Below are positions 1 through 9,253 of a stretch of 64,000 bases of DNA, one piece after another (position 1 is the stretch's first letter; each line of letters begins with the position of its first letter). The notes beneath the pieces are model-generated. The model was not told where the DNA came from. It ran no database searches and saw only the letters and a program-made list of their open reading frames with translations. The position numbers and the translations under genes were made by a program. The stretch is from Candidatus Latescibacterota bacterium (GTDB lineage Bacteria; Latescibacterota; UBA2968; UBA8231): the NCBI GenBank assembly GCA_965261395.1, contig OZ253462.1, positions 4,000,001-4,064,000 of the forward strand, written 5' to 3'.

Positions 1-1200
1 TCTGACAATGACTATGCGGTTGTATTCTTGATCGGGCGGCGGTTGGTTGATTTTATTCTAAAAAGTGAAAATCGTCGCATTTTGAATCCCGAGCTACAAG
101 CGGAACTTGAATTCGGTATAGAAAACTCAAGAGACAAAAGTGTCGAAGATTTTAAAAACTTGTGGAAAGCGTTCTTGTCAATGGGTGACGATTGGGAATA
201 CGCAGAGGATGCGATACTCACCCTTCGTGATAATTATTCTCGTCACAATGATCCGGTATCACAACAACTAAACTCTGTCGTTGCTGACGAGGTTGCATAT
301 CTCTATGCAATTTGGTCTGATGATTTTGAGGTCGCACTTGAATATGCAAGAAAGGTCGCAGACGCACTCGATGGCGATGAAGTAAAGGCATATCGGGCTT
401 GGTGGTACTACCTCTCGTCCGAAGCCGCGATGGCTCTCCATGAGGCCACTAAAGAGGAAGCCTATCAAGACACCGCTCGCGATTTACTGAAACGTGCCTC
501 AAGATGTTGTATCGGCGTCAGTTGGTTTGCACGTTTAGGGCGGTCATTGGGTCCGAAGTACGAAACGCCAGAAGTTGATGAGATGTCTGCGGTAGCTGTG
601 GAGACAATCCGGGAATATTTGGCTAATTTGGGTGCTGTTGGAGGGCAGTTTGAGAAAAAACTCAGCCAGGTCAAGGAGAATCTCCAGTCCACTAACCACA
701 AGGCATTTCATCAAGGTCTCAAAGGACTCGGCGAGATGCTGGGGTTCCAGGCAGAATTACCTGAAGGGAATGCTGCACCTGACTGCATTTGGTCCATTAG
801 AAACCTCGTCTATGTTGTACATGAGGCGAAATCAGAACACACGTCAAAGGAGCCGATAGGCGTCAGGGACATCCGACAGGCTCAAAGCCATGCCAAATGG
901 ATTCGTGCTAATCGGAAATGTGAAGCCAATACCGAGGTTTTGTGTCTAATTGAAAGTCCTCGCACGACAGTTGATCAAGAAGCCATTGTTCACGCTGATT
1001 CTCTTCGCCATATCACACCTAGACAATTGAAAGAAATCTTTGATAAAATCGCTGCAATTCTCCGTCGAGTTAGGTCGAAATTGGTCGATCTCAGTGACGA
1101 GAAAGTTCTTGAGGAACTGTTCCGCGAGCTATCAGAAGGCAACCTTGTTCCTAGGCAATTACTGGACCGTCTATCCCAGAAGCTAGTCAAAGACATGTAA
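1..1200 (+). CDS. SF2 (DinG/Rad3-like) helicase with C-terminal PD-(D/E)XK nuclease domain, Hna-like; 5' end outside window
   Basis: Frame is open from base 1 (SDNDYAVVFLIG, typical of the segment after helicase motif VI); C-terminal PDCIW...HEAK nuclease-like motif. Confidence 0.6.
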   Translation, partial: SDNDYAVVFLIGRRLVDFILKSENRRILNPELQAELEFGIENSRDKSVEDFKNLWKAFLSMGDDWEYAEDAILTLRDNYSRHNDPVSQQLNSVVADEVAYLYAIWSDDFEVALEYARKVADALDGDEVKAYRAWWYYLSSEAAMALHEATKEEAYQDTARDLLKRASRCCIGVSWFARLGRSLGPKYETPEVDEMSAVAVETIREYLANLGAVGGQFEKKLSQVKENLQSTNHKAFHQGLKGLGEMLGFQAELPEGNAAPDCIWSIRNLVYVVHEAKSEHTSKEPIGVRDIRQAQSHAKWIRANRKCEANTEVLCLIESPRTTVDQEAIVHADSLRHITPRQLKEIFDKIAAILRRVRSKLVDLSDEKVLEELFRELSEGNLVPRQLLDRLSQKLVKDM

Positions 1201-1254: not shown

Positions 1255-3294
1255 ATGAATGAATACCAGATGGTAAAAAATGGACTCACGAGTAACTGGC
1301 GTGACCAGATTCTCCGCGAATTCACGCCCAACGTAGCCCGTCTGACACTGGTCGCCGACCCTGACGGGCTACTTTTGGAAGAAGGCATTCTTGCGGGCAT
1401 ACGCGAGCGAGGATTTGAACTGATTCCGTTCGAGGATCATATCGCCTTTCGGTATGCCTACGAGACCAAGTTCCGTTCCCGTTGGGATCGAGGCGAGCAA
1501 ACAGAACTGGTGGTCGTACTGCACTCCGAGGCCCGTGACCTTAATAGCTTGCCATACGACCTGCTTCAGGCTGGTCGTCGGCTGTCATTCAGCTTGGGCG
1601 AGATTTTCCCCAACCTGAGCTATCCGGTTGTGGCCGCCTTGGACCGGCGAGACTTGGACGCGCTGGACGATGCCCAAGAGCAGTACGCGCCCGATGTGCT
1701 GGGAGACAACGCGACCATAAAATTTGTCCTGCGGCATGTCTTCGATATTGAGCCTGAACTCATCAAGGAGCCATCCGATTTGTTGCGCGTGCTGCTGCGC
1801 CGCCATCACCGAGAACAGCGGGTTCCGGCTTTGTTGGACGAGCGATTTGTCCAGTTGCTTCGCCAGCAGCATGGCTTTGAAGACTGGCCACTCGAAACGA
1901 TCATTTCAGACCGGCAGGCATTTTTCGCCTTTCTCCAAGAACGCTGGCCCATTTTTCTCGACCGGGCAGCGAGCGAAGAAGGTCTCGGCGTTCGGGAGCG
2001 CACGGAACCTTATGCTTTAGAGTTTTCCGGCCCTACGGATTTGCCATTCGATCACGACGATATCCGTATTTATATAGACAACCTGTTTCTTGAAGGACTG
2101 CTTGAAGCCGTTCCATACGAACAGGCCGAATCGTTGTCAAAGCCTTGGCTCGTTATTGGCATCCGAAGGGATGAGCAGGCGGACCGAGAGCGCCGCGTGG
2201 ATGGCCTGCTCTGCACTTTGGCCTCCACTATTCCGCAAGAGGATGCACAACACGACGATTGGTTCCGCTTTGCCAAGACTTGGGCCGAACTGGTGGCCTT
2301 ATCTATGGAATCGGATGCGATTTTGCCAGAGCCTGTACGTCAAAAGATGGAGACGTTGCAAGCACGAATTGACGATGCACTTGTATCTTGGCTGGCAAAC
2401 CGCTATGCGGGATTGAGCAGTCTGCCGCCAGTTCCGCCGGTCATGCTGCACCACATTCCCCGTTTCCTTGCTAGGCATGTCAAGGATGCCAAGGAACACA
2501 AGGTGGCGTTCGTCCTAGTAGATGGCCTTTCGCTAGATCAGTGGATCGTCGCCCGCAAGGAGCTTGCCAAGCAACGCCCCGAGTACCGTTTCCGAGAGCA
2601 CGCGGTGTTTGCTTGGATACCCACCATCACCTCGGTTTCGCGCCAGGCAGCCTTTGCCGGCAAGCTACCTAGCTACTTTCCAAACAGTATTGACACCACG
2701 AACAAGGAGCCAGCCTTATGGACGAAATTTTGGGTGGACCAAGGGCTGACACAGCAAGAAGTCGGATATGCCAAAGGGCTTGGGGACGGTGCACTGGATC
2801 GCGTAGAGGAGATGATTGCTCGACCACGGATGCGCGTCGTTGGTTTGGTTGTTGACAAAGTAGATAGGATCATGCACGGCATGGAGCTTGGCACTGCGGG
2901 GATGCACAATCAAGTTCGGCAGTGGGCCAATCAACCGTTCATGGGGAACCTCATTGACCTGTTGCTGGATAATGGATTCCGCGTCCACCTATCTTCGGAT
3001 CATGGAAACATCGAAGCCGCCGGATGCGGGCGACCTACCGAGGGCGCAGTTGCAGACCAGCGTGGTGAACGGGCGCGCGTGTACTCCAATTCAGTGCTGC
3101 GGGGCCGAGTCAAAGAGCGATTCCTTGACGCCTTGGAATGGCCGTCGATTGGGCTGCCGGAAGACTATTTACCTCTACTGGCTCCTGGCCGTTCTGCATT
3201 CGTCCATGAGGGCGAACGCCTTGTCGGCCATGGTGGCGCATCGCTTGAAGAACTCATTGTCCCCTTTGTGCAGATCGACAGGAGGGGGCCATGA
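1255..3294 (+). CDS. pglZ: BREX type 3 phosphatase PglZ
   Basis: N-terminal WRDQILREF...LVADPDGLL; alkaline-phosphatase-fold motifs VLVDGLS, PTITSVSR, SSDHGN, GHGG; exact start uncertain. Confidence 0.93.
   Translation: MNEYQMVKNGLTSNWRDQILREFTPNVARLTLVADPDGLLLEEGILAGIRERGFELIPFEDHIAFRYAYETKFRSRWDRGEQTELVVVLHSEARDLNSLPYDLLQAGRRLSFSLGEIFPNLSYPVVAALDRRDLDALDDAQEQYAPDVLGDNATIKFVLRHVFDIEPELIKEPSDLLRVLLRRHHREQRVPALLDERFVQLLRQQHGFEDWPLETIISDRQAFFAFLQERWPIFLDRAASEEGLGVRERTEPYALEFSGPTDLPFDHDDIRIYIDNLFLEGLLEAVPYEQAESLSKPWLVIGIRRDEQADRERRVDGLLCTLASTIPQEDAQHDDWFRFAKTWAELVALSMESDAILPEPVRQKMETLQARIDDALVSWLANRYAGLSSLPPVPPVMLHHIPRFLARHVKDAKEHKVAFVLVDGLSLDQWIVARKELAKQRPEYRFREHAVFAWIPTITSVSRQAAFAGKLPSYFPNSIDTTNKEPALWTKFWVDQGLTQQEVGYAKGLGDGALDRVEEMIARPRMRVVGLVVDKVDRIMHGMELGTAGMHNQVRQWANQPFMGNLIDLLLDNGFRVHLSSDHGNIEAAGCGRPTEGAVADQRGERARVYSNSVLRGRVKERFLDALEWPSIGLPEDYLPLLAPGRSAFVHEGERLVGHGGASLEELIVPFVQIDRRGP
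1288..1368 (+). repeat. 81-bp direct repeat copy 1 (pglZ 5' end), partner at 9173-9253
   Basis: 76/81 identical by manual alignment, last 52 bp identical. Confidence 0.95.
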
Positions 3295-4037
3295 ACGGCC
3301 GGCAAGCCCAGATTGGCTTCAGTCAACGTATCCGACTTGAGTGGTTCGAGCAGACAGCTAATATGATACTGGCTGGAAACGATAAGACTGCCATCAACGA
3401 CTCTCTGCAAGCTCTTCTGGAAGATAAGATCTCAGTAGGCGGTCAGGCCGTCAGAGGCGGCAGGGAGAAAGTGATTACCATCCTGTTGAAGACTTGGTTG
3501 ACCGTACCTCGTGAATTAGAGACGCTGCGGGACGAGGGCTTGGACATCTTCCAGAGGCTACCTCGTAAAGAACGCATTGTTATTCACTGGGGCATGGTCT
3601 TGGCAGTCTATCCGTTTTGGGGTGCAATCGCCGCTGATACTGGCAGGCTTCTACGCCTACAGGGCACAGCCGCAGCAGCCCATGTTCAGCGACGGGTCAA
3701 GGAGCAATACGGAGAGCGCGAAGCCGCGTCACGGGCTGCCCGGCGTGTGCTTCGATCATTCATCGATTGGGGAGTTTTGAACGAGACGGGGGACAAAGGC
3801 GTCTATGCCCAAGGGGAACAGTACTCCGTTGAGGAACCTAGGCTTATCGCCTGGCTAATGGAGGCGTCTCTCCGCTCCCGTGTGCATAGGGCTGCCGCCA
3901 TTAAGGATCTGCTCGAAAGTCCAAGCATCTTTCCGTTTCAATTAGCCCACATCTCAGCCGAGCAGGTGGCGTCCCTATCCCCTCGCTTAGACATCCTACG
4001 ACACGGTCTGGATGACGATCTGGTGATGCTACCGTGA
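3291..4037 (+). CDS. brxA: BREX type 3 BrxA-like protein
   Basis: ATGA overlap with pglZ, ~250 aa, IGFSQRIRLEW N-terminus, canonical position after pglZ. Confidence 0.75.
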   Translation: MNGRQAQIGFSQRIRLEWFEQTANMILAGNDKTAINDSLQALLEDKISVGGQAVRGGREKVITILLKTWLTVPRELETLRDEGLDIFQRLPRKERIVIHWGMVLAVYPFWGAIAADTGRLLRLQGTAAAAHVQRRVKEQYGEREAASRAARRVLRSFIDWGVLNETGDKGVYAQGEQYSVEEPRLIAWLMEASLRSRVHRAAAIKDLLESPSIFPFQLAHISAEQVASLSPRLDILRHGLDDDLVMLP

Positions 4038-4116
4038 CTACCGGACAAGTCCCCAAGTCCACTTCAGCGATACCAGACAACGGATAAGGGCGAACCAACT
4101 TCGGAGATAGGTAGTC

Positions 4117-4494
4117 ATGTCGAGACTCGAAACACCCCTCACACGACGCTATTGGCGAGAGATCGGCGGCACCCTGATAGAGGAGTTCCCGGCCGTCCGT
4201 TCTGGCCCGAATCAAGGTAGGAGATTGCTTGATGGCGTCGTGCTCTTGGATTCTCCACACTTGATTGCGAACCATCGGGAAGTTGAAATCGAGAATCGAG
4301 ATATTGTGGTGATTCAAACAAAGGCCAGCCGACTGGGCATGTATCTCCTGGGTCAGGCGCTATTCTCGCGACATCTGATGATGCCGTTTCGGCCCAGTAG
4401 CGTAGACACGGTTGCAATTTGCACCAAAGGTGATGCCGTGCTGGAACCTTTGGCTGCGGAATATGGAATAAAGGTGGTGGTGTACCAGGACTAA
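4117..4494 (+). CDS. Small hypothetical protein, PD-(D/E)XK-like
   Basis: RBS GGAG upstream; LDGV...IQTK...GQAL pattern. Confidence 0.55.
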   Translation: MSRLETPLTRRYWREIGGTLIEEFPAVRSGPNQGRRLLDGVVLLDSPHLIANHREVEIENRDIVVIQTKASRLGMYLLGQALFSRHLMMPFRPSSVDTVAICTKGDAVLEPLAAEYGIKVVVYQD

Positions 4495-4712
4495 CTCAGC
4501 AGGCGTGCCGAGGTCTTGTCGGTCTCTTCGGCCTGCACGCTCGGGGCTTGGTGCGATACGGATTGAGGTAGCGACAGGCCATCAAACCGTATTGGGAGTC
4601 CTGCCGAAGAAGCCGCAAACCCTCTTCAGGGAGCTTGTCCGGCCCGTGCGAGCGTTTATCGCCTTGACAGAGAGTCCAAAAAAGAGGCTTTATTTTCCTT
4701 ATACTCGATAAG

Positions 4713-4931
4713 GTCGAGCATCGCGGCCAAGCGGAAAACGGCCAGGCGGCAGTGGAGATCATCATGGCCATGTACGAGTCGGCGCGACTACACGAGGTGC
4801 CCGCGCTGCCTTTGCGGACGATGGCTTCACCGCTGGAAGTGATGATCGAGGCAGGAGATTTGCCGGTAGAGCGCCCAGGCCGCTACGACATCCGCGCCTT
4901 CCTGCTGCGCGGCGAGGATATGCAGCCTTAG
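4713..4931 (+). pseudogene. 3' fragment of a Gfo/Idh/MocA-family oxidoreductase
   Basis: Reads VEHRGQAENGQAAVEIIMAMYESARLHEVPALPL...GRYDIRAFLLRGEDMQP*; no start; GC-rich like the host core genes. Confidence 0.7.
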
Positions 4932-4967
4932 AACCAGACGAAAATTGAAACCCACAGGAGAAAGGTA

Positions 4968-5024
4968 ATGGCGGACTCTCTTGCCGATCAGATCATGAGA
5001 AAGGTCGGGCCGGCCGCCAGTCTA
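4968..5024 (+). pseudogene. brxF: 5' stub of BREX-3 brxF
   Basis: Strong RBS, then MADSLADQIMRKVGPAASL, resembling BrxF N-termini; breaks before the Walker A. Confidence 0.6.
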
Positions 5025-5026
5025 AA

Positions 5027-5125
5027 GCTGTCGCGGGAAAAATCCCGGAGACGATCCTCCAAGAGGATTCTAAACTCCTCATGTGGTATGACCAAGCAAT
5101 AACACGAATGGGAGATGAGGCATGA
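5027..5125 (+). pseudogene. pglXI: 3' stub of BREX-3 methyltransferase pglXI
   Basis: Different frame reads AVAGKIPETILQEDSKLLMWYDQAITRMGDEA*, matching the BREX-3 methylase C-terminus as I recall it; stop overlaps the next ATG. Confidence 0.7.
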
Positions 5126-7890
5126 AAGAGTGGGGCTGGAACGGTGCGCGTTGGTGGAAGTGTGATTTTCACACGCATACCCCGGCATCCAACGATTATG
5201 GGAAGGGCCAGAAGCAGACGGCTCTTCAGGAGCGATCCCCCAAGGAATGGCTGCTCGACTACATGCGTGCCGGCGTTGATTGTATTGCGATCACAGACCA
5301 TAACACCGGGGCGTGGATCGACGTACTGCGAAACGCCATGGAAGAGCTGATAGAGGATGGCCATTCAGATTACCGCAAACTGTATATTTTTTCTGGAATG
5401 GAAATCTCTATATCTGGCGGAATCCATTTGCTTGCGATTTTCGATCCTTCAAAGACATCTTCGGACCTTGACGCCCTTCGAGGCGCAGTGGAGTATGGAG
5501 GAACGCCGGGGCAAAGCGATGACGTCACACGCAAGGCGTTCGTCGACGTAATCAACACAGTCACTTCAGCCGGAGGTATAGCGATCCCTGCTCACGTGGA
5601 TGAGGAAAGTGGGCTTTTTCATCGACAGAAGGGGAATACACTAGATCAGGCATTGAACTGCAAAGATATCTTCGCCATGGAGTTGGTGGACCCAGCGTCT
5701 GAGAAACCACAGCTTTATATTGACAAAGGCCTACGCTGGGCTGAAATCCTTGGTTCAGACTCCCATCATCCTTCCGGTGTCGCGGGACAGTCATATCCGG
5801 GCAGCCACTTTACTTGGGTCAAGATGGGGTCGCCCAGCGTGGAGGGATTGCGGTTAGCCTTGTTGGACGGAGAGCTTTCCGTACGTCGGTCCGACCAGGA
5901 TACGGATGACCCAAACGAACACGCACCGTTGGTGTTGGATTCTATTGAGGTTTCGCAAGCGCGCTACATGGGTTGCTCCCAAATCTTCACTATTGGGTTC
6001 AACCCATGGTTCAACGCTATCATCGGAGGCCGAGGCACAGGTAAATCGACTGTTGTCGAGTTCCTTCGTACTGCCCTTCGACGGGAGGCTGAATTGCCGG
6101 AGACGTTGCAACCGGAGTTCGAACAGTATAACCGAGTCTATCAAGACCGAGAAGACAGCGGACTGCTTACAGAAGATGCTGCCATCCGAGTGATTTGCCG
6201 AAAAGACAGCGACCGGTTTCGCGTCCAGTGGAATAAGGCCGGCGGCCTTGAACCTATTGAACAAGAAGTGAATGGACAATGGCAGCGCGCAGAAGGCGAT
6301 ATTCAGCAACGATTTCCCGTGCGAATCTACAGTCAGAAGCAAGTGTTCCAACTCGCCAGAACTCCGCTTGCGTTGCTTAAAAATATCGATGAGGCCCCAG
6401 AGGTTGGTTACCATTCTTGGTCTGAAAAATGGAAAGTGCAGGAAAGCCGCTTTCTTTCTCTGCGTGCTAAGGCTAGAGAAATCAAGGTCGGTCCTGGCGA
6501 GGAGCAGCGTCTTCGGGGAGAGCTGGACGACGTGGAACGAAAACTGGCGATTTTTGAACAGTCGGGACACACCGAAATCCTAAAGTCCTTCCAAAAACGG
6601 AAACGCCAGCAGCGGGATGTCGAGGTATGGGAAGAAAGCTGGACTGGCGTGGGAGAGCAGTTGCGCGAAGTCGCGGCTGAAATAGTACCGGATCTGCTGG
6701 ATGAAACTTCTTTCGACTCAGATGCAGCGTCAGACAATGAATTGCAGAGACGTGCTGCTAAGACGCACGACCATCTAAACAAAATCCGCAAAGCGGTCGA
6801 AGTGCTTGCATCGCAAGCGGATGACATTGTCATCGAGTGGCAGAAAAGCAGGGATGAGTCGTCTTGGAAACAGAGCGTTGAGGCTGCCGCGCAAGCCTAC
6901 CAGGAATTGACAGAGAATCTGTCCCGAGAAGGGGCTGGCGACCCTGCGGCCTACGGCGAACTTGTACAGCGTCGGCAAGTCATTGAGCAACGGCTTTCGG
7001 AAGTGGACGAACGTAAAAAACAGGTTGATGATCTGAATAATCAGGCAGATGCACACTTGCAGCATTTGCTGGAAATTCGCCGGGAGTTGACGGCGTCTCG
7101 TCGATCATTTCTCAATTCCGTCCTAAGCGACAACCCATATATCCAGATACAGGTCGCCCCTTATGGTGCCCGCGAGACGGTCGAAAGCGAGTTTCGCCGA
7201 TTGCTCCAAAGAGAGGATGGGACGTTTGAGAAAGACATTGGATCGCCGAATGACGGGGGATTGCTTGGCGAACTTTATGAGCAGGATGCCGGTGCCGAGG
7301 TGATTGAAGAGAATCTTTTGAACATCAAGACCCGTGTCACAGAGATCGCGTTGGGTGAATACGGCACGGGAACAGTGGCAGATCGGCGTTTTGCCAACCA
7401 TGTAGGCAATCTCCCGCCTGAAGCTATTGATCGCCTTGACCTGTGGTTTCCAGAGGATTCTTTAGAGGTCCAATACAGCGCAAGGGGCGATGGACAGCGT
7501 TTTCGCTCAATACAAGAAGGTTCGCCTGGTCAGAAGACCGCAGCGCTCTTGGCGTTTCTGCTTTCCTACGGAAACGAACCACTGATCTTAGACCAGCCGG
7601 AGGACGATTTGGACAACCACCTGATCTACGGTTTGATCGTGACCCAATTGCGGGCGATCAAACGCCGTCGGCAGGTCATTGTGGTCACGCACAACGCGAA
7701 TATAGCCGTCAACGGTGACGCCGAATTGGTAGTAGCCCTCACAGCACGCGGCAGGGAAACGCAGAAAGAGTGCGAAGGCAGCCTGCAAGAGCAACAGGTG
7801 AGAGAGACCATTTGTGCAGTGATGGAGGGTGGTCGTAAGGCCTTTGAGGATCGGTATCGCCGCATTGCGCTGGAAGGACGCTATGTTTAA
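5122..7890 (+). CDS. PHP phosphoesterase fused to SMC/ABC-like ATPase (Ppl/TrlF-like defence protein)
   Basis: PHP motifs DFHTH, ITDHN, PAH, GSDSH; Walker A GGRGTGKS, coiled coil, SPGQ, ILDQPEDDLD, VTHN. Confidence 0.88.
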   Translation: MKEWGWNGARWWKCDFHTHTPASNDYGKGQKQTALQERSPKEWLLDYMRAGVDCIAITDHNTGAWIDVLRNAMEELIEDGHSDYRKLYIFSGMEISISGGIHLLAIFDPSKTSSDLDALRGAVEYGGTPGQSDDVTRKAFVDVINTVTSAGGIAIPAHVDEESGLFHRQKGNTLDQALNCKDIFAMELVDPASEKPQLYIDKGLRWAEILGSDSHHPSGVAGQSYPGSHFTWVKMGSPSVEGLRLALLDGELSVRRSDQDTDDPNEHAPLVLDSIEVSQARYMGCSQIFTIGFNPWFNAIIGGRGTGKSTVVEFLRTALRREAELPETLQPEFEQYNRVYQDREDSGLLTEDAAIRVICRKDSDRFRVQWNKAGGLEPIEQEVNGQWQRAEGDIQQRFPVRIYSQKQVFQLARTPLALLKNIDEAPEVGYHSWSEKWKVQESRFLSLRAKAREIKVGPGEEQRLRGELDDVERKLAIFEQSGHTEILKSFQKRKRQQRDVEVWEESWTGVGEQLREVAAEIVPDLLDETSFDSDAASDNELQRRAAKTHDHLNKIRKAVEVLASQADDIVIEWQKSRDESSWKQSVEAAAQAYQELTENLSREGAGDPAAYGELVQRRQVIEQRLSEVDERKKQVDDLNNQADAHLQHLLEIRRELTASRRSFLNSVLSDNPYIQIQVAPYGARETVESEFRRLLQREDGTFEKDIGSPNDGGLLGELYEQDAGAEVIEENLLNIKTRVTEIALGEYGTGTVADRRFANHVGNLPPEAIDRLDLWFPEDSLEVQYSARGDGQRFRSIQEGSPGQKTAALLAFLLSYGNEPLILDQPEDDLDNHLIYGLIVTQLRAIKRRRQVIVVTHNANIAVNGDAELVVALTARGRETQKECEGSLQEQQVRETICAVMEGGRKAFEDRYRRIALEGRYV

Positions 7891-9139
7891 CAGCCCGGAA
7901 GAACTGTTGCAGAAGATACGCCTTGGAGAAGATACTTCGCTGGAACTCAAGGCCGTCCGGTTCAGGGGCGACCGGGTTTCCGGTCCTGGTCGCGATGAGT
8001 TGGCCGACGAGTTGGCAGCTATCGCCAATACTCACGACGGTGTACTTGTCTTGGGCGTAGACGACAAGACGCGAGACATCATAGGCATTCCGATAGACCA
8101 CCTTGATGCTGTCGAAAGCTTTGTCTATGAGATTTGCAATGAGAGCATCACGCCGCCAGTCCATTTTCGTTCTTTCCGTATGCAGCTCCCTGATGCCACG
8201 GGGAATCTCCGGTCCGTGCTCAACGTAGAAATCCCACGCAGCCTTTTTGTCCACAGGAGCCCTGGAGGATATTTCTTTCGGCAAGGAAGTTCAAAACGAG
8301 AGATGCCGCCCGATTATCTGACACGGCTGTCCCAGCAACTAAGCCAAGTTCGGCTGATTCGATTCGAGGAACAATCCGTGCCGCAATCGAGCAGGGACGA
8401 CTTATCCGAAAAGTTGTGGGCCAACTATATAACAAGATCTGATGAATCCGCGGGTATCGTGCTCCTTAAACGCGGTCTTTTGTCGAAGGAAGAAAGCGGG
8501 GCCGTCCGGGCTTCGGTTGCTGGCATTCTGGTCTGTTGCGAGGAGCCAGAGCGTTTTTTGCCTAATGCCTATATTGAAGCCGTGCGCTATCGCGGAAAAA
8601 AGCGGGATTCCAATTATCAGATAGACGCCCAAAAAATTCGCGGCCCGCTGAATCGACAGATCGAACAAGCTATGACCTTTCTCAGGAAAAACCAGACGGT
8701 CTCAGCCGTAAAAATTCCGCATCGGGTCGAAGTGCAGCAGTTCAGCGAAAGAGCGGTTTTTGAAGCGATTGTCAATGCTGTGGCTCACCGCGATTATTCC
8801 ATTTTCGCCTCGAAAATACGGTTCTTCATGTTTGAAGATCGGTTGGAAATCTACTCGCCAGGTACTCTCCCGAATACCGTGACCATTGACAGCATCTCCC
8901 TCCGTCAGGCTACCCGAAACGAACTGATTACCAATCTGCTTACAGAGACGCCAGTGGCGGGAACGGTCGGCGATGTGGGACGTAGTTTTTACATGGAAAA
9001 GCGAGGCGAGGGTGTTCCAATCATTTTTGACGAGAGCGAAAAACTTTCCGGAAAGAAGCCTGTTTATCGACTTATTGACGACTCCGAACTGCTACTGACC
9101 ATTTTTTCGAGGGGCACGGAACGTGCGGATGAGCACTGA
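7883..9139 (+). CDS. AlbA_2 (Schlafen-like) + HATPase_c_4 domain protein
   Basis: GEDTSLELK, AIANTHDGVLVLGVDD, EAIVNAVAHRDY, EIYSPG; overlaps upstream stop. Confidence 0.88.
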   Translation: MFNSPEELLQKIRLGEDTSLELKAVRFRGDRVSGPGRDELADELAAIANTHDGVLVLGVDDKTRDIIGIPIDHLDAVESFVYEICNESITPPVHFRSFRMQLPDATGNLRSVLNVEIPRSLFVHRSPGGYFFRQGSSKREMPPDYLTRLSQQLSQVRLIRFEEQSVPQSSRDDLSEKLWANYITRSDESAGIVLLKRGLLSKEESGAVRASVAGILVCCEEPERFLPNAYIEAVRYRGKKRDSNYQIDAQKIRGPLNRQIEQAMTFLRKNQTVSAVKIPHRVEVQQFSERAVFEAIVNAVAHRDYSIFASKIRFFMFEDRLEIYSPGTLPNTVTIDSISLRQATRNELITNLLTETPVAGTVGDVGRSFYMEKRGEGVPIIFDESEKLSGKKPVYRLIDDSELLLTIFSRGTERADEH

Positions 9140-9172
9140 TGTAAGCGGTCGGTATTTAGGATCGGATGCACG

Positions 9173-9253
9173 ATGAGTAACTGGCGCAACCAGATTCTTC
9201 ACGAATTCACGCCCAACGTAGCCCGTCTGACACTGGTCGCCGACCCTGACGGG
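9173..9253 (+). pseudogene. pglZ: 5' stub of a second pglZ (direct repeat copy 2)
   Basis: ATG start, MSNWRNQILHEFTPNVARLTLVADPDG, then homology stops abruptly. Confidence 0.92.

Follow-up and report, generated by a model that had tools for sequence, protein, structure and literature searches.

Probable relic of a second type-3 BREX island that has kept its Ppl and Schlafen-type cargo genes in a Candidatus Latescibacterota genome

The window analysed in this report comprises 64,000 nucleotides (nt) of a Candidatus Latescibacterota bacterium, positions 4000001–4064000 of the single 6.55-Mb contig OZ253462.1, and opens inside an intact type-3 bacteriophage exclusion (BREX) island, allele A. Window positions 4710–9253, to the right of allele A in the same hotspot, are most likely the relic of a second type-3 BREX island, allele B, whose cargo has outlived its carrier. 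Two complete genes, coding for Ppl and for a Schlafen/AlbA_2 protein, are enclosed by short ends of an oxidoreductase gene and of the core genes brxF, pglXI and pglZ. Families were assigned with PADLOC models and Pfam, and the stubs were compared by BLASTN and blastx. The relic and its right flank contain the following features.

4710..4931, plus strand: 3' stub of a second copy of the GFO/IDH/MocA oxidoreductase gene, 222 nt, stop codon TAG at 4929–4931, matching residues 269–352 in blastx
4932..5024, plus strand: spacer with ribosome-binding site (RBS) and brxF 5' stub of allele B, 19 codons from ATG 4968
5026..5125, plus strand: pglXI 3' stub of allele B, last 32 codons and stop, ending in LLMWYDQA
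5122..7890, plus strand: Ppl (PHP phosphoesterase with ABC-type ATPase), 922 residues, intact
7829..9139, plus strand: Schlafen/AlbA_2 gene with GHKL-like region (Pfam SLFN_AlbA_2, 4.7e-14; HATPase_c_4, 7.5e-19)
9173..9253, plus strand: pglZ 5' stub of allele B, 27 codons from ATG 9173
9207..11546, minus strand: FAD-oxidoreductase/BNR gene (Pfam), right flank of the hotspot, compared with its counterparts in the same-genus genomes G022 and G020

Window positions 4710–5023 align with genome positions 3989451–3989764, with 294 of 314 nt identical (94%, E 4e-137, BLASTN). The alignment covers the last 222 nt of the oxidoreductase gene, a 36-nt spacer with the RBS and the first 19 codons of brxF; in blastx, 19 of 20 residues are identical to BrxF residues 1–20. 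The pglXI stub (5026–5125) corresponds to the last 100 nt of the upstream pglXI gene (genome 3998504–3998603) with 85 identical positions (E 2e-27) and, at the protein level, 26 of 31 residues identical to PglXI 910–940. The pglZ stub (9175–9253) shares 75 of 79 nt (95%, E 2e-31) with pglZ of allele A (window 1290–1368) and 24 of 26 residues with PglZ 13–38. It is 100% identical to L032, a locus described below, over 9223–9253. Neither brxC nor brxA is present in 4710–9253, and the core is reduced to 19 codons of brxF, 32 of pglXI and 27 of pglZ. At 94%, 85% and 95% identity to allele A the stubs do not derive from a fresh duplication. Since the relic begins with 222 nt of the genus-specific oxidoreductase gene, the spacer and the brxF start at 94% identity, allele B was once a full island at this site and in this genus.

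Three junctions delimit the remaining pieces. The first (4709|4710) joins 196 nt without a match in other loci to the interior of the oxidoreductase gene. At the second (~5024|5025) the brxF stub meets the pglXI stub out of frame, and the brxF frame ends at TAA 5100–5102 as an open reading frame (ORF) of 44 codons. The third (9253|9254) reads pglZ...GACGGG|GCAC...flank. The FAD/BNR gene extends three codons further in G022 and G020; in the window its last three codons and stop are clipped, and the frame gains a tail of 14 codons from the antisense strand of the pglZ stub (9207–9253, minus strand). Thus, the deletion at this end took pglZ from codon 28 onwards, brxA, anything beyond it and the clipped end of the FAD/BNR gene. 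Position 9253, from which all relatives begin to match, is for the same reason ruled out as the natural end of the island. A first-pass annotation, made from the sequence letters, had described the oxidoreductase stub, the RBS with 19 brxF codons, the 32 out-of-frame pglXI codons and the 27 pglZ codons, and all of them are present. It had also predicted an intact oxidoreductase gene followed by brxF, and a pglXI gene with the same LLMWYDQA end, upstream of the window; both were found by BLASTN. The second allele in tandem with the first, which it proposed, is borne out, in diverged form, by the stub identities.

Allele A supplies the reference for these comparisons. Upstream of the window, the oxidoreductase gene (352 residues) is followed by brxF (161 residues), brxC (1241), an AlbA_2 gene (616), pglXI (941) and a helicase gene (866).

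About 15 kb upstream, left of brxF: GFO/IDH/MocA oxidoreductase gene (Pfam), 352 residues, intact
Genome 3989706–4004037: allele A, type-3 BREX, with brxF, brxC, pglXI, pglZ and brxA present in this order
Genome 3993956–3995806 (L007:11956–13806): Schlafen/AlbA_2-HATPase_c_4 gene with Fic-like_C, between brxC and pglXI, 616 residues
Window 1..1200, plus strand: 3' part of the helicase gene (whole gene genome 3998600–4001200), 866 residues, filling the slot between pglXI and pglZ
Window 1255..3294, plus strand: pglZ of allele A (PADLOC PglZ, E 0, residues 13–677; Pfam PglZ)
Window 3291..4037, plus strand: brxA of allele A (PADLOC BrxA, 4.4e-100)

The core genes of allele A are recognized by PADLOC with E values of 9.5e-75 (BrxF), 0 (BrxC, PglXI and PglZ) and 4.4e-100 (BrxA), and their order is that stated for type-3 BREX (PMC12839542). 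The true start of pglZ is probably located near 1288. An ATGA motif couples pglXI to the next gene, as it does for the pglXI stub and Ppl in the relic. The next gene in allele A is the helicase, which matches the PADLOC model PDC-S28 with both halves (1.3e-84 for the N-terminal and 5.9e-36 for the C-terminal half) and the Pfam families DEAD and Helicase_C_2, i.e. domains of the DEAD/DinG type. No BrxHII match was obtained at E ≤ 0.01 for its C-terminal half or at E ≤ 0.001 for its N-terminal half, and no BrxHI is listed. By these model matches, the slot gene is a PDC-S28-like helicase and not a Swi2/Snf2 BrxHII. On the scale of whole genomes the BrxHII model is unspecific (five genomes searched; matches in 14 of 14 controls) and cannot show absence; among the matches listed, none lies inside the island. 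PDC-S28 belongs to the "PDC" phage-defence-candidate series of PADLOC which, on our own reading of the methods in bioRxiv 10.1101/2024.01.29.577857, was derived from a screen for embedded genes. The canonical order with brxHII, on which the first-pass annotation had relied, is therefore not that of allele A, and in two same-genus islands (G020 and G007) no gene occupies this position. BrxHII is reported for only 77% of type-3 BREX systems (PMC12839542).

The two cargo genes of the relic are complete. Ppl matches the PADLOC model PDLC02208 (4.5e-143) over practically its full length (residues 8–915 on model positions 4–892 of 894) and the Pfam families AAA_21 and SMC_N. It carries an HxH motif of the PHP domain at the N-terminus and a Walker A motif at residue 302, in agreement with known Ppl (Gao_ppl). 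Its length is 920–924 residues in all 15 copies compared. Of 359 columns without variation among the 14 other copies, the window copy deviates at 6; the same count ranges from 1 to 19 for the others. Pairwise dN/dS ratios against the window gene are 0.11–0.24 for Ppl (11 pairs) and 0.075–0.38 for the Schlafen gene (4 pairs). The pglXI stub TGA (5123–5125) overlaps the Ppl ATG at 5122, and the Schlafen gene probably starts at ATG 7883, with an overlap of 8 nt with the Ppl stop. The intact PHP-ATPase coupled by ATGA to the pglXI stub and the AlbA_2 gene behind it had both been noticed on the first pass, and the full-length model match and the SLFN_AlbA_2 domain agree with that description. As far as sequence can tell, the cargo is intact and alive. 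The arrangement of a SLFN_AlbA_2 domain followed by a HATPase_c_4 region is that of prokaryotic Schlafen/AlbA_2-GHKL proteins; the 616-residue gene of allele A has the same domains and additionally Fic-like_C.

Ppl has been described as a single-gene, stand-alone anti-phage system of E. coli that responds to DNA ends (PMC11482910, PMC13648713), and bacterial Schlafens have been described as RNases (PMC12839542). Protection against phage by Ppl is known only for the E. coli homologues. A scan of genome contigs with the Ppl protein yielded 21 related loci (labelled L), mostly from Candidatus Latescibacterota metagenome-assembled genomes (MAGs), together with MAGs of Bryobacterales, Terriglobia, Spirochaetes, Zixiibacteriota, Desulfobacteraceae and Gammaproteobacteria. 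Unlike the single-gene system of PMC11482910, Ppl is directly followed by the Schlafen/AlbA_2 gene in 20 of the 21 loci, with stop and start codons overlapping; the exception is L045. From this constant linkage, the two proteins may act together.

BREX traces in the 21 loci were searched by tblastn with the island proteins as queries (E ≤ 1e-4). Four loci (L032, L038, L043 and L047) contain the intact order brxF-brxC-pglXI-Ppl-AlbA_2-pglZ-brxA. BREX-3 islands holding a PHP-ATPase and an AlbA_2 gene between pglXI and pglZ, which the first-pass annotation had expected in relatives, thus exist. In terms of sequence, L032 is the closest intact relative of allele B among the fetched loci, with 89.6% nt identity over window 5038–5316 and 90.5% over 5514–9253. 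The identity is a mosaic, with a minimum of 60% within Ppl and a maximum of 98.5% within the Schlafen gene. Within Ppl, window 5226–5822 and 6423–6822 are 60–81% identical and the neighbouring parts 90–98%, a patchiness that points to recombination or rapid evolution of some regions of Ppl. At the esterase-oxidoreductase flank of the hotspot, the nt identity of the L032 genome is only 65–73%, compared with up to 98.5% in the island. The island has therefore moved between genera by horizontal transfer. Two of the intact loci have additional peculiarities. The pglXI gene of L038 is split by a stretch of about 1.6 kb with a 510-codon ORF (L038:6447–7979, minus strand) that has no match in Pfam or PADLOC. 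In L047, a true BrxHII, split into two ORFs (L047:14077–16980), follows the Ppl-Schlafen pair.

Seven further loci (L037, L040, L042, L044, L045, L050 and L052) retain stubs of the BREX core only, so that together with the genome studied (G000) eight relics are counted. The extent of the stubs differs. L044 has BrxF 1–63 fused in frame to PglXI 797–937, then the pair, then PglZ 13–93 and BrxA 194–247. L042 retains BrxF 1–35, L037 retains PglZ 13–130 and L045 retains 34 pglXI codons. L040 (also labelled G040) preserves 52 or more codons of pglXI and 41 of pglZ, with a frameshift and a stop codon, and L052 a frameshifted PglXI 572–939. In L050 the pglXI stub is located after the pair. The brxF start is retained in only three of the eight relics (G000, L044 and L042). 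L037 and L040 share the same neighbours at one site (UvrD-like helicase) and are counted as one lineage. Among the remaining relics the breakpoints differ, which makes the collapses independent.

The site itself was compared by a DNA search for the locus in 40 relatives (labelled G), 24 of the same genus and 16 of the same class. The hotspot is the gap between two convergent host genes, the GFO/IDH/MocA oxidoreductase gene and the FAD-oxidoreductase/BNR gene. It is empty in same-genus G022, where the matches to both genes lie within 18 nt of each other and the stop codons overlap. In three other genomes of the genus it is occupied by BREX-3: between the two host genes in G020, directly after the oxidoreductase gene in G018 (no FAD/BNR gene in the fetched stretch) and after the neighbouring esterase gene in G007 (no oxidoreductase match and no FAD/BNR gene in the fetched stretch). 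The gap between pglXI and pglZ holds no gene in G020 (~60 nt) and G007 (~270 nt) and three small ORFs without a Pfam or PADLOC match in G018. This gap is a variable slot that is either empty or filled with the PDC-S28-like helicase of allele A, the ORFs of G018 or Ppl and Schlafen. The Ppl-Schlafen cargo is absent from all 24 same-genus genomes searched.

Oxidoreductase 3' stubs like that of the relic recur in the hotspot, with lengths of ~207 nt in G018, 127–153 nt in G012, ~93–100 nt in G011 and 127–140 nt in G013. A site-specific attachment (att) site in the 3' end of the oxidoreductase gene is ruled out by such unequal lengths (222, ~207, 127–153 and ~93–100 nt). Furthermore, no integrase domain or recombinase was found among the island ORFs scanned, which together with the stub lengths argues against site-specific entry. 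In G011, G012 and G013 the oxidoreductase gene is followed first by scraps of brxF (35 nt) and brxC (37 nt) and then by the terminal 54 nt of brxC, the AlbA_2 gene of 616 residues at full length and the initial 34 nt of pglXI. An oxidoreductase stub is next and, in G011 and G012, then the orf125 module that also lies between allele A and the relic. Judged from these pieces, an A-type island has collapsed in parallel in the three genomes, keeping only its embedded AlbA_2 gene. In G021 the copy of this gene is truncated. A PglZ protein query had no match in G011, G012 and G013 (93–94% complete) and matched only the stub in G040.

The following course of events would account for the relic and for its surroundings. 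New DNA would enter the hotspot repeatedly at the end of the oxidoreductase gene, and each arrival would shift the older layers to the right, behind a leftover oxidoreductase 3' stub. Judged from the footprints, incoming DNA would recombine homologously within the conserved left flank, and its right end would be joined illegitimately. Two deletions would then have emptied allele B, the first spanning everything between brxF codon 19 and the final 32 codons of pglXI, the second reaching from pglZ codon 27 into the last three FAD/BNR codons. The genes of the accessory slot between pglXI and pglZ (Ppl and Schlafen/AlbA_2-GHKL) would have been left whole, as a defence module that is self-sufficient, can move horizontally and survives the loss of the BREX island around it. 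The data tend to favour an order in which allele B is the older layer, and a collapse independent of allele A. Homology-facilitated illegitimate recombination and layered defence hotspots are known phenomena. A conserved flank on one side, breakpoints that vary on the other and duplicated gene-end stubs of unequal length are features that the present hotspot shares with them. In addition, the footprint seems to occur here at two scales, as oxidoreductase stubs left by islands and as pglXI stubs left by cassettes.

The locus was further compared with sequencing runs. Fourteen runs contain at least half of the sampled words, and four (X1, X5, X6 and the RNA library X15) were compared, all as contigs; results refer to the contig pieces listed, and stretches without X15 cover carry no information. 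The first junction is crossed without differences in X1, X5 and X6, which come from three studies, by contigs that start at 4098, 4055 and 4141 and end at 4739. The oxidoreductase stub is identical to the intact copy over 4710–4743 (34 nt), which makes a repeat-induced contig break at this point plausible. A variant joins 4747 to 5030 in one contig each of X5, X6 and X15 and has neither most of the oxidoreductase stub nor the brxF stub. The X15 contig runs from an oxidoreductase 3' end through 210 other letters and window 4051–4747 to 5030; allele A is absent from it, although it carries the left portion of the relic. Loose contig ends occur at 4710, at 5023 and, in X1, X5 and X15, at 9253/9254. 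The last show that other variants exist, with a right end like that of G020.

Several observations weigh against the relic interpretation or parts of it. No BREX trace was detected in 10 of the 21 Ppl loci, four of which (L039, L041, L046 and L049) are cut by the contig end; accordingly, the Ppl-Schlafen pair is not bound to BREX. The purifying selection on the cargo is measured across whole lineages and not specifically after the collapse. Contigs of the RNA library X15 cover parts of both cargo genes and not window 3000–3935; such libraries can contain DNA, and the cover is no proof of transcription. The contigs across the first junction pass it by 30 letters, one below the criterion of 31, and bridging of the second and third junctions is not readable from the contig pieces listed. 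All runs were compared as contigs, which gives no long-read support. With no integrase among the scanned ORFs, the entry mechanism rests on footprints.

The reason for the collapse has also been seen differently. According to the first-pass annotation, allele B was integrated in tandem with allele A and shed core genes that were redundant, and the cargo is driven by the expression signals of brxF. The tandem layout is real, and three of the eight relics join the first codons of brxF to the pglXI end (L044 in frame), as would be expected if deletions sparing the 5' signals of the operon were favoured. Redundancy as the cause is nevertheless unlikely. Where the PglZ query found no second BREX-3, as in G011, G012 and G013, the core was lost and the embedded gene kept all the same, which makes loss through redundancy doubtful; G040, with its stub only, is a comparable case. 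The relic without allele A on the X15 contig points in the same direction. In addition, the contigs of X5, X6 and X15 that skip 4748–5029 have no brxF stub. The spacer before brxF comprises only 36 nt and any promoter must lie further upstream, which counts against expression from brxF signals. This part of the proposal is also weakened by the small number of relics with a brxF start (three of eight) and by a promoter-like repeat at 4643–4705.

Alternatively, a cassette that had already been trimmed (pglXI stub, Ppl, Schlafen, pglZ stub) could have moved between genomes and been inserted here, with the gene ends serving as homology arms. The same stub-flanked cassette indeed stands in surroundings without BREX in G040/L040 and L037. 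The pglXI end also has the properties of a homology arm: among seven PglXI alleles the last 300 residues are 79–85% identical, compared with about 25% in the central part. Moreover, such cassettes appear to be stacked. In L047 the full pglXI gene is followed by a trio of HATPase_c, STAS-like DUF4325 and PIN genes (L047:7921–9710), then by a 167-nt pglXI stub that is 84% identical to the pglXI end of the same locus, and then by Ppl. In L050 the pair is followed by a second pglXI stub and a further P-loop ATPase gene. All this is outweighed by the left end of the relic, the 222 nt of genus-specific oxidoreductase sequence with the spacer and the brxF start at 94% identity, because a trimmed cassette from a distant donor would not bring an oxidoreductase-brxF stretch along. 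Arrival as a trimmed cassette is thus quite improbable for the window. In a variant of this explanation, the collapse may have occurred in a close relative and have been followed by homologous transfer.

It is very unlikely that Ppl and Schlafen are working parts of a BREX-3 variant in which they replace the helicase, so that the relic would be a dead, decaying orphan. The pair does occupy the place of BrxHII, with no BrxHII present, in three of the four intact loci, and only L047 has both. Against a mere subunit role, full-length ORFs persist in all relics as well as in stub-less copies amid housekeeping genes, and Ppl is reported to act alone in E. coli (PMC11482910, PMC13648713). In L048 the stub-less pair separates the E1 and E2 genes of pyruvate dehydrogenase; its neighbours are dnaK and a succinyl-CoA ligase gene in L035, and SpoU methylase and asparaginase genes in L051. 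Around the pair within the pyruvate dehydrogenase operon (L048:10001–13970), no stubs or mobility genes were seen.

That an assembler stitched two strain haplotypes of the hotspot, allele A and the relic, in series is hardly credible: the runs do hold several locus variants (the loose ends and the 4747–5030 joint) and the contamination estimate for the genome is 8%, but the genome is a single contig, contigs from three studies cross the first junction without differences and end 30 nt beyond it, and this junction joins non-homologous sequence, which an assembler would not create without reads.

The interpretation as a collapsed allele B with surviving cargo can be extended, with considerably less confidence, to the pglXI gene as such. 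The pglXI stubs repeat the footprint of the oxidoreductase stubs at the level below. Possibly, defence cassettes use the conserved pglXI 3' end as a dedicated docking point, where they are swapped and stacked among BREX-3 islands across genera and phyla, BREX-3 being a disposable carrier and Ppl-Schlafen an obligate two-gene system that persists after the carrier decays. If so, each event would leave a pglXI stub, as whole islands leave oxidoreductase stubs, and stand-alone defence genes could be traced back to BREX by the gene-end stubs that flank them.

Defence genes embedded in BREX, DISARM, Hma and type I restriction-modification operons have been surveyed under the term "guilt by embedding" (bioRxiv 10.1101/2024.01.29.577857), and BrxU lies within the BREX locus of pEFER (PMC8565348). 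Type-3 BREX has also been linked to "backup effectors", namely Schlafen-RNase, minimal histidine kinase and winged helix-turn-helix proteins, in at least 1017 taxa (PMC12839542). The idea that BREX serves as a vehicle for defence genes, put forward on the first pass, is consequently sound with regard to the embedded cargo and already in print (bioRxiv 10.1101/2024.01.29.577857, PMC12839542). The Ppl-Schlafen pairs of L032, L038, L043 and L047, which stand between core genes in the same orientation, fit the pattern of the embedding survey. Unlike the survey, which excluded systems with pseudogenes, the present loci are recurrent cases in which the carrier is gone and the embedded genes remain with stubs. 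The words "remnant" and "degraded" do not occur in the part of the survey text available (bioRxiv 10.1101/2024.01.29.577857). "PHP", "Ppl" and "histidinol" have no occurrence in PMC12839542, so that the slot pair is not named in its main text. Literature searches aimed at relic or remnant BREX loci yielded no description of them; the "remnant" mentioned in the accessible text of PMC9009780 is an engineered brxL fragment. What seems to be new is the recurrent collapse of BREX-3 with retention of the cargo, the constant pairing of Ppl and Schlafen, and the gene-end stubs that mark stacking at two scales.

Embedded defence genes serve the discovery of immune systems, and their fate after decay of the carrier had not been followed; the stubs provide a fossil record of it. 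Being intact after core loss in eight relic loci and also present alone amid housekeeping genes, the embedded pair is apparently autonomous. The constant pairing with a Schlafen-type gene is a testable lead for a system that has so far been studied as a single gene. That the BREX-3 core is lost repeatedly is relevant to the turnover of methylation-based defence and to its cost. Short gene-end stubs are possible markers for the origin of stand-alone defence genes and for the sites of recombination where islands and cassettes become stacked.

Three further layers separate allele A from the relic.

4038..4094, no strand assigned: right-end sequence, shared with G020 and G018, where it follows brxA, and with G009, where it directly follows the oxidoreductase gene (88–93%, blastn)
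4102..4513, plus strand: orf125 module (ORF 4117–4494), common to G011, G012 and G021 with 94–95% nt and 89–90% amino acid identity
4514..4709, plus strand: unmatched stretch of 196 nt, no match among the fetched loci, holding the repeat 4643–4705

The orf125 module is an older layer of the hotspot. The orf125 product has no match in Pfam or PADLOC; a D...E.K-like pattern gives the impression, and only the impression, of a small PD-(D/E)xK nuclease. In window 3900–9500, a promoter and terminator scan did not exceed shuffled sequences (2 hits with 3.0 expected, and 5 with 5.7) and did not pick up the repeat 4643–4705, and Rfam gave no match (E ≤ 1). The repeat contains a TTGACA box and an A/T-rich box oriented towards the relic. 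Its core has three further copies in the genome (2879029–2879089, 2912003–2912050 and 1653380–1653418) and is present in relatives, too. Judged from its sequence, it could serve as a promoter or represent a small mobile element. Just past the right flank of the hotspot, window 11827–13416 encodes a leucine-rich repeat protein of 529 residues.

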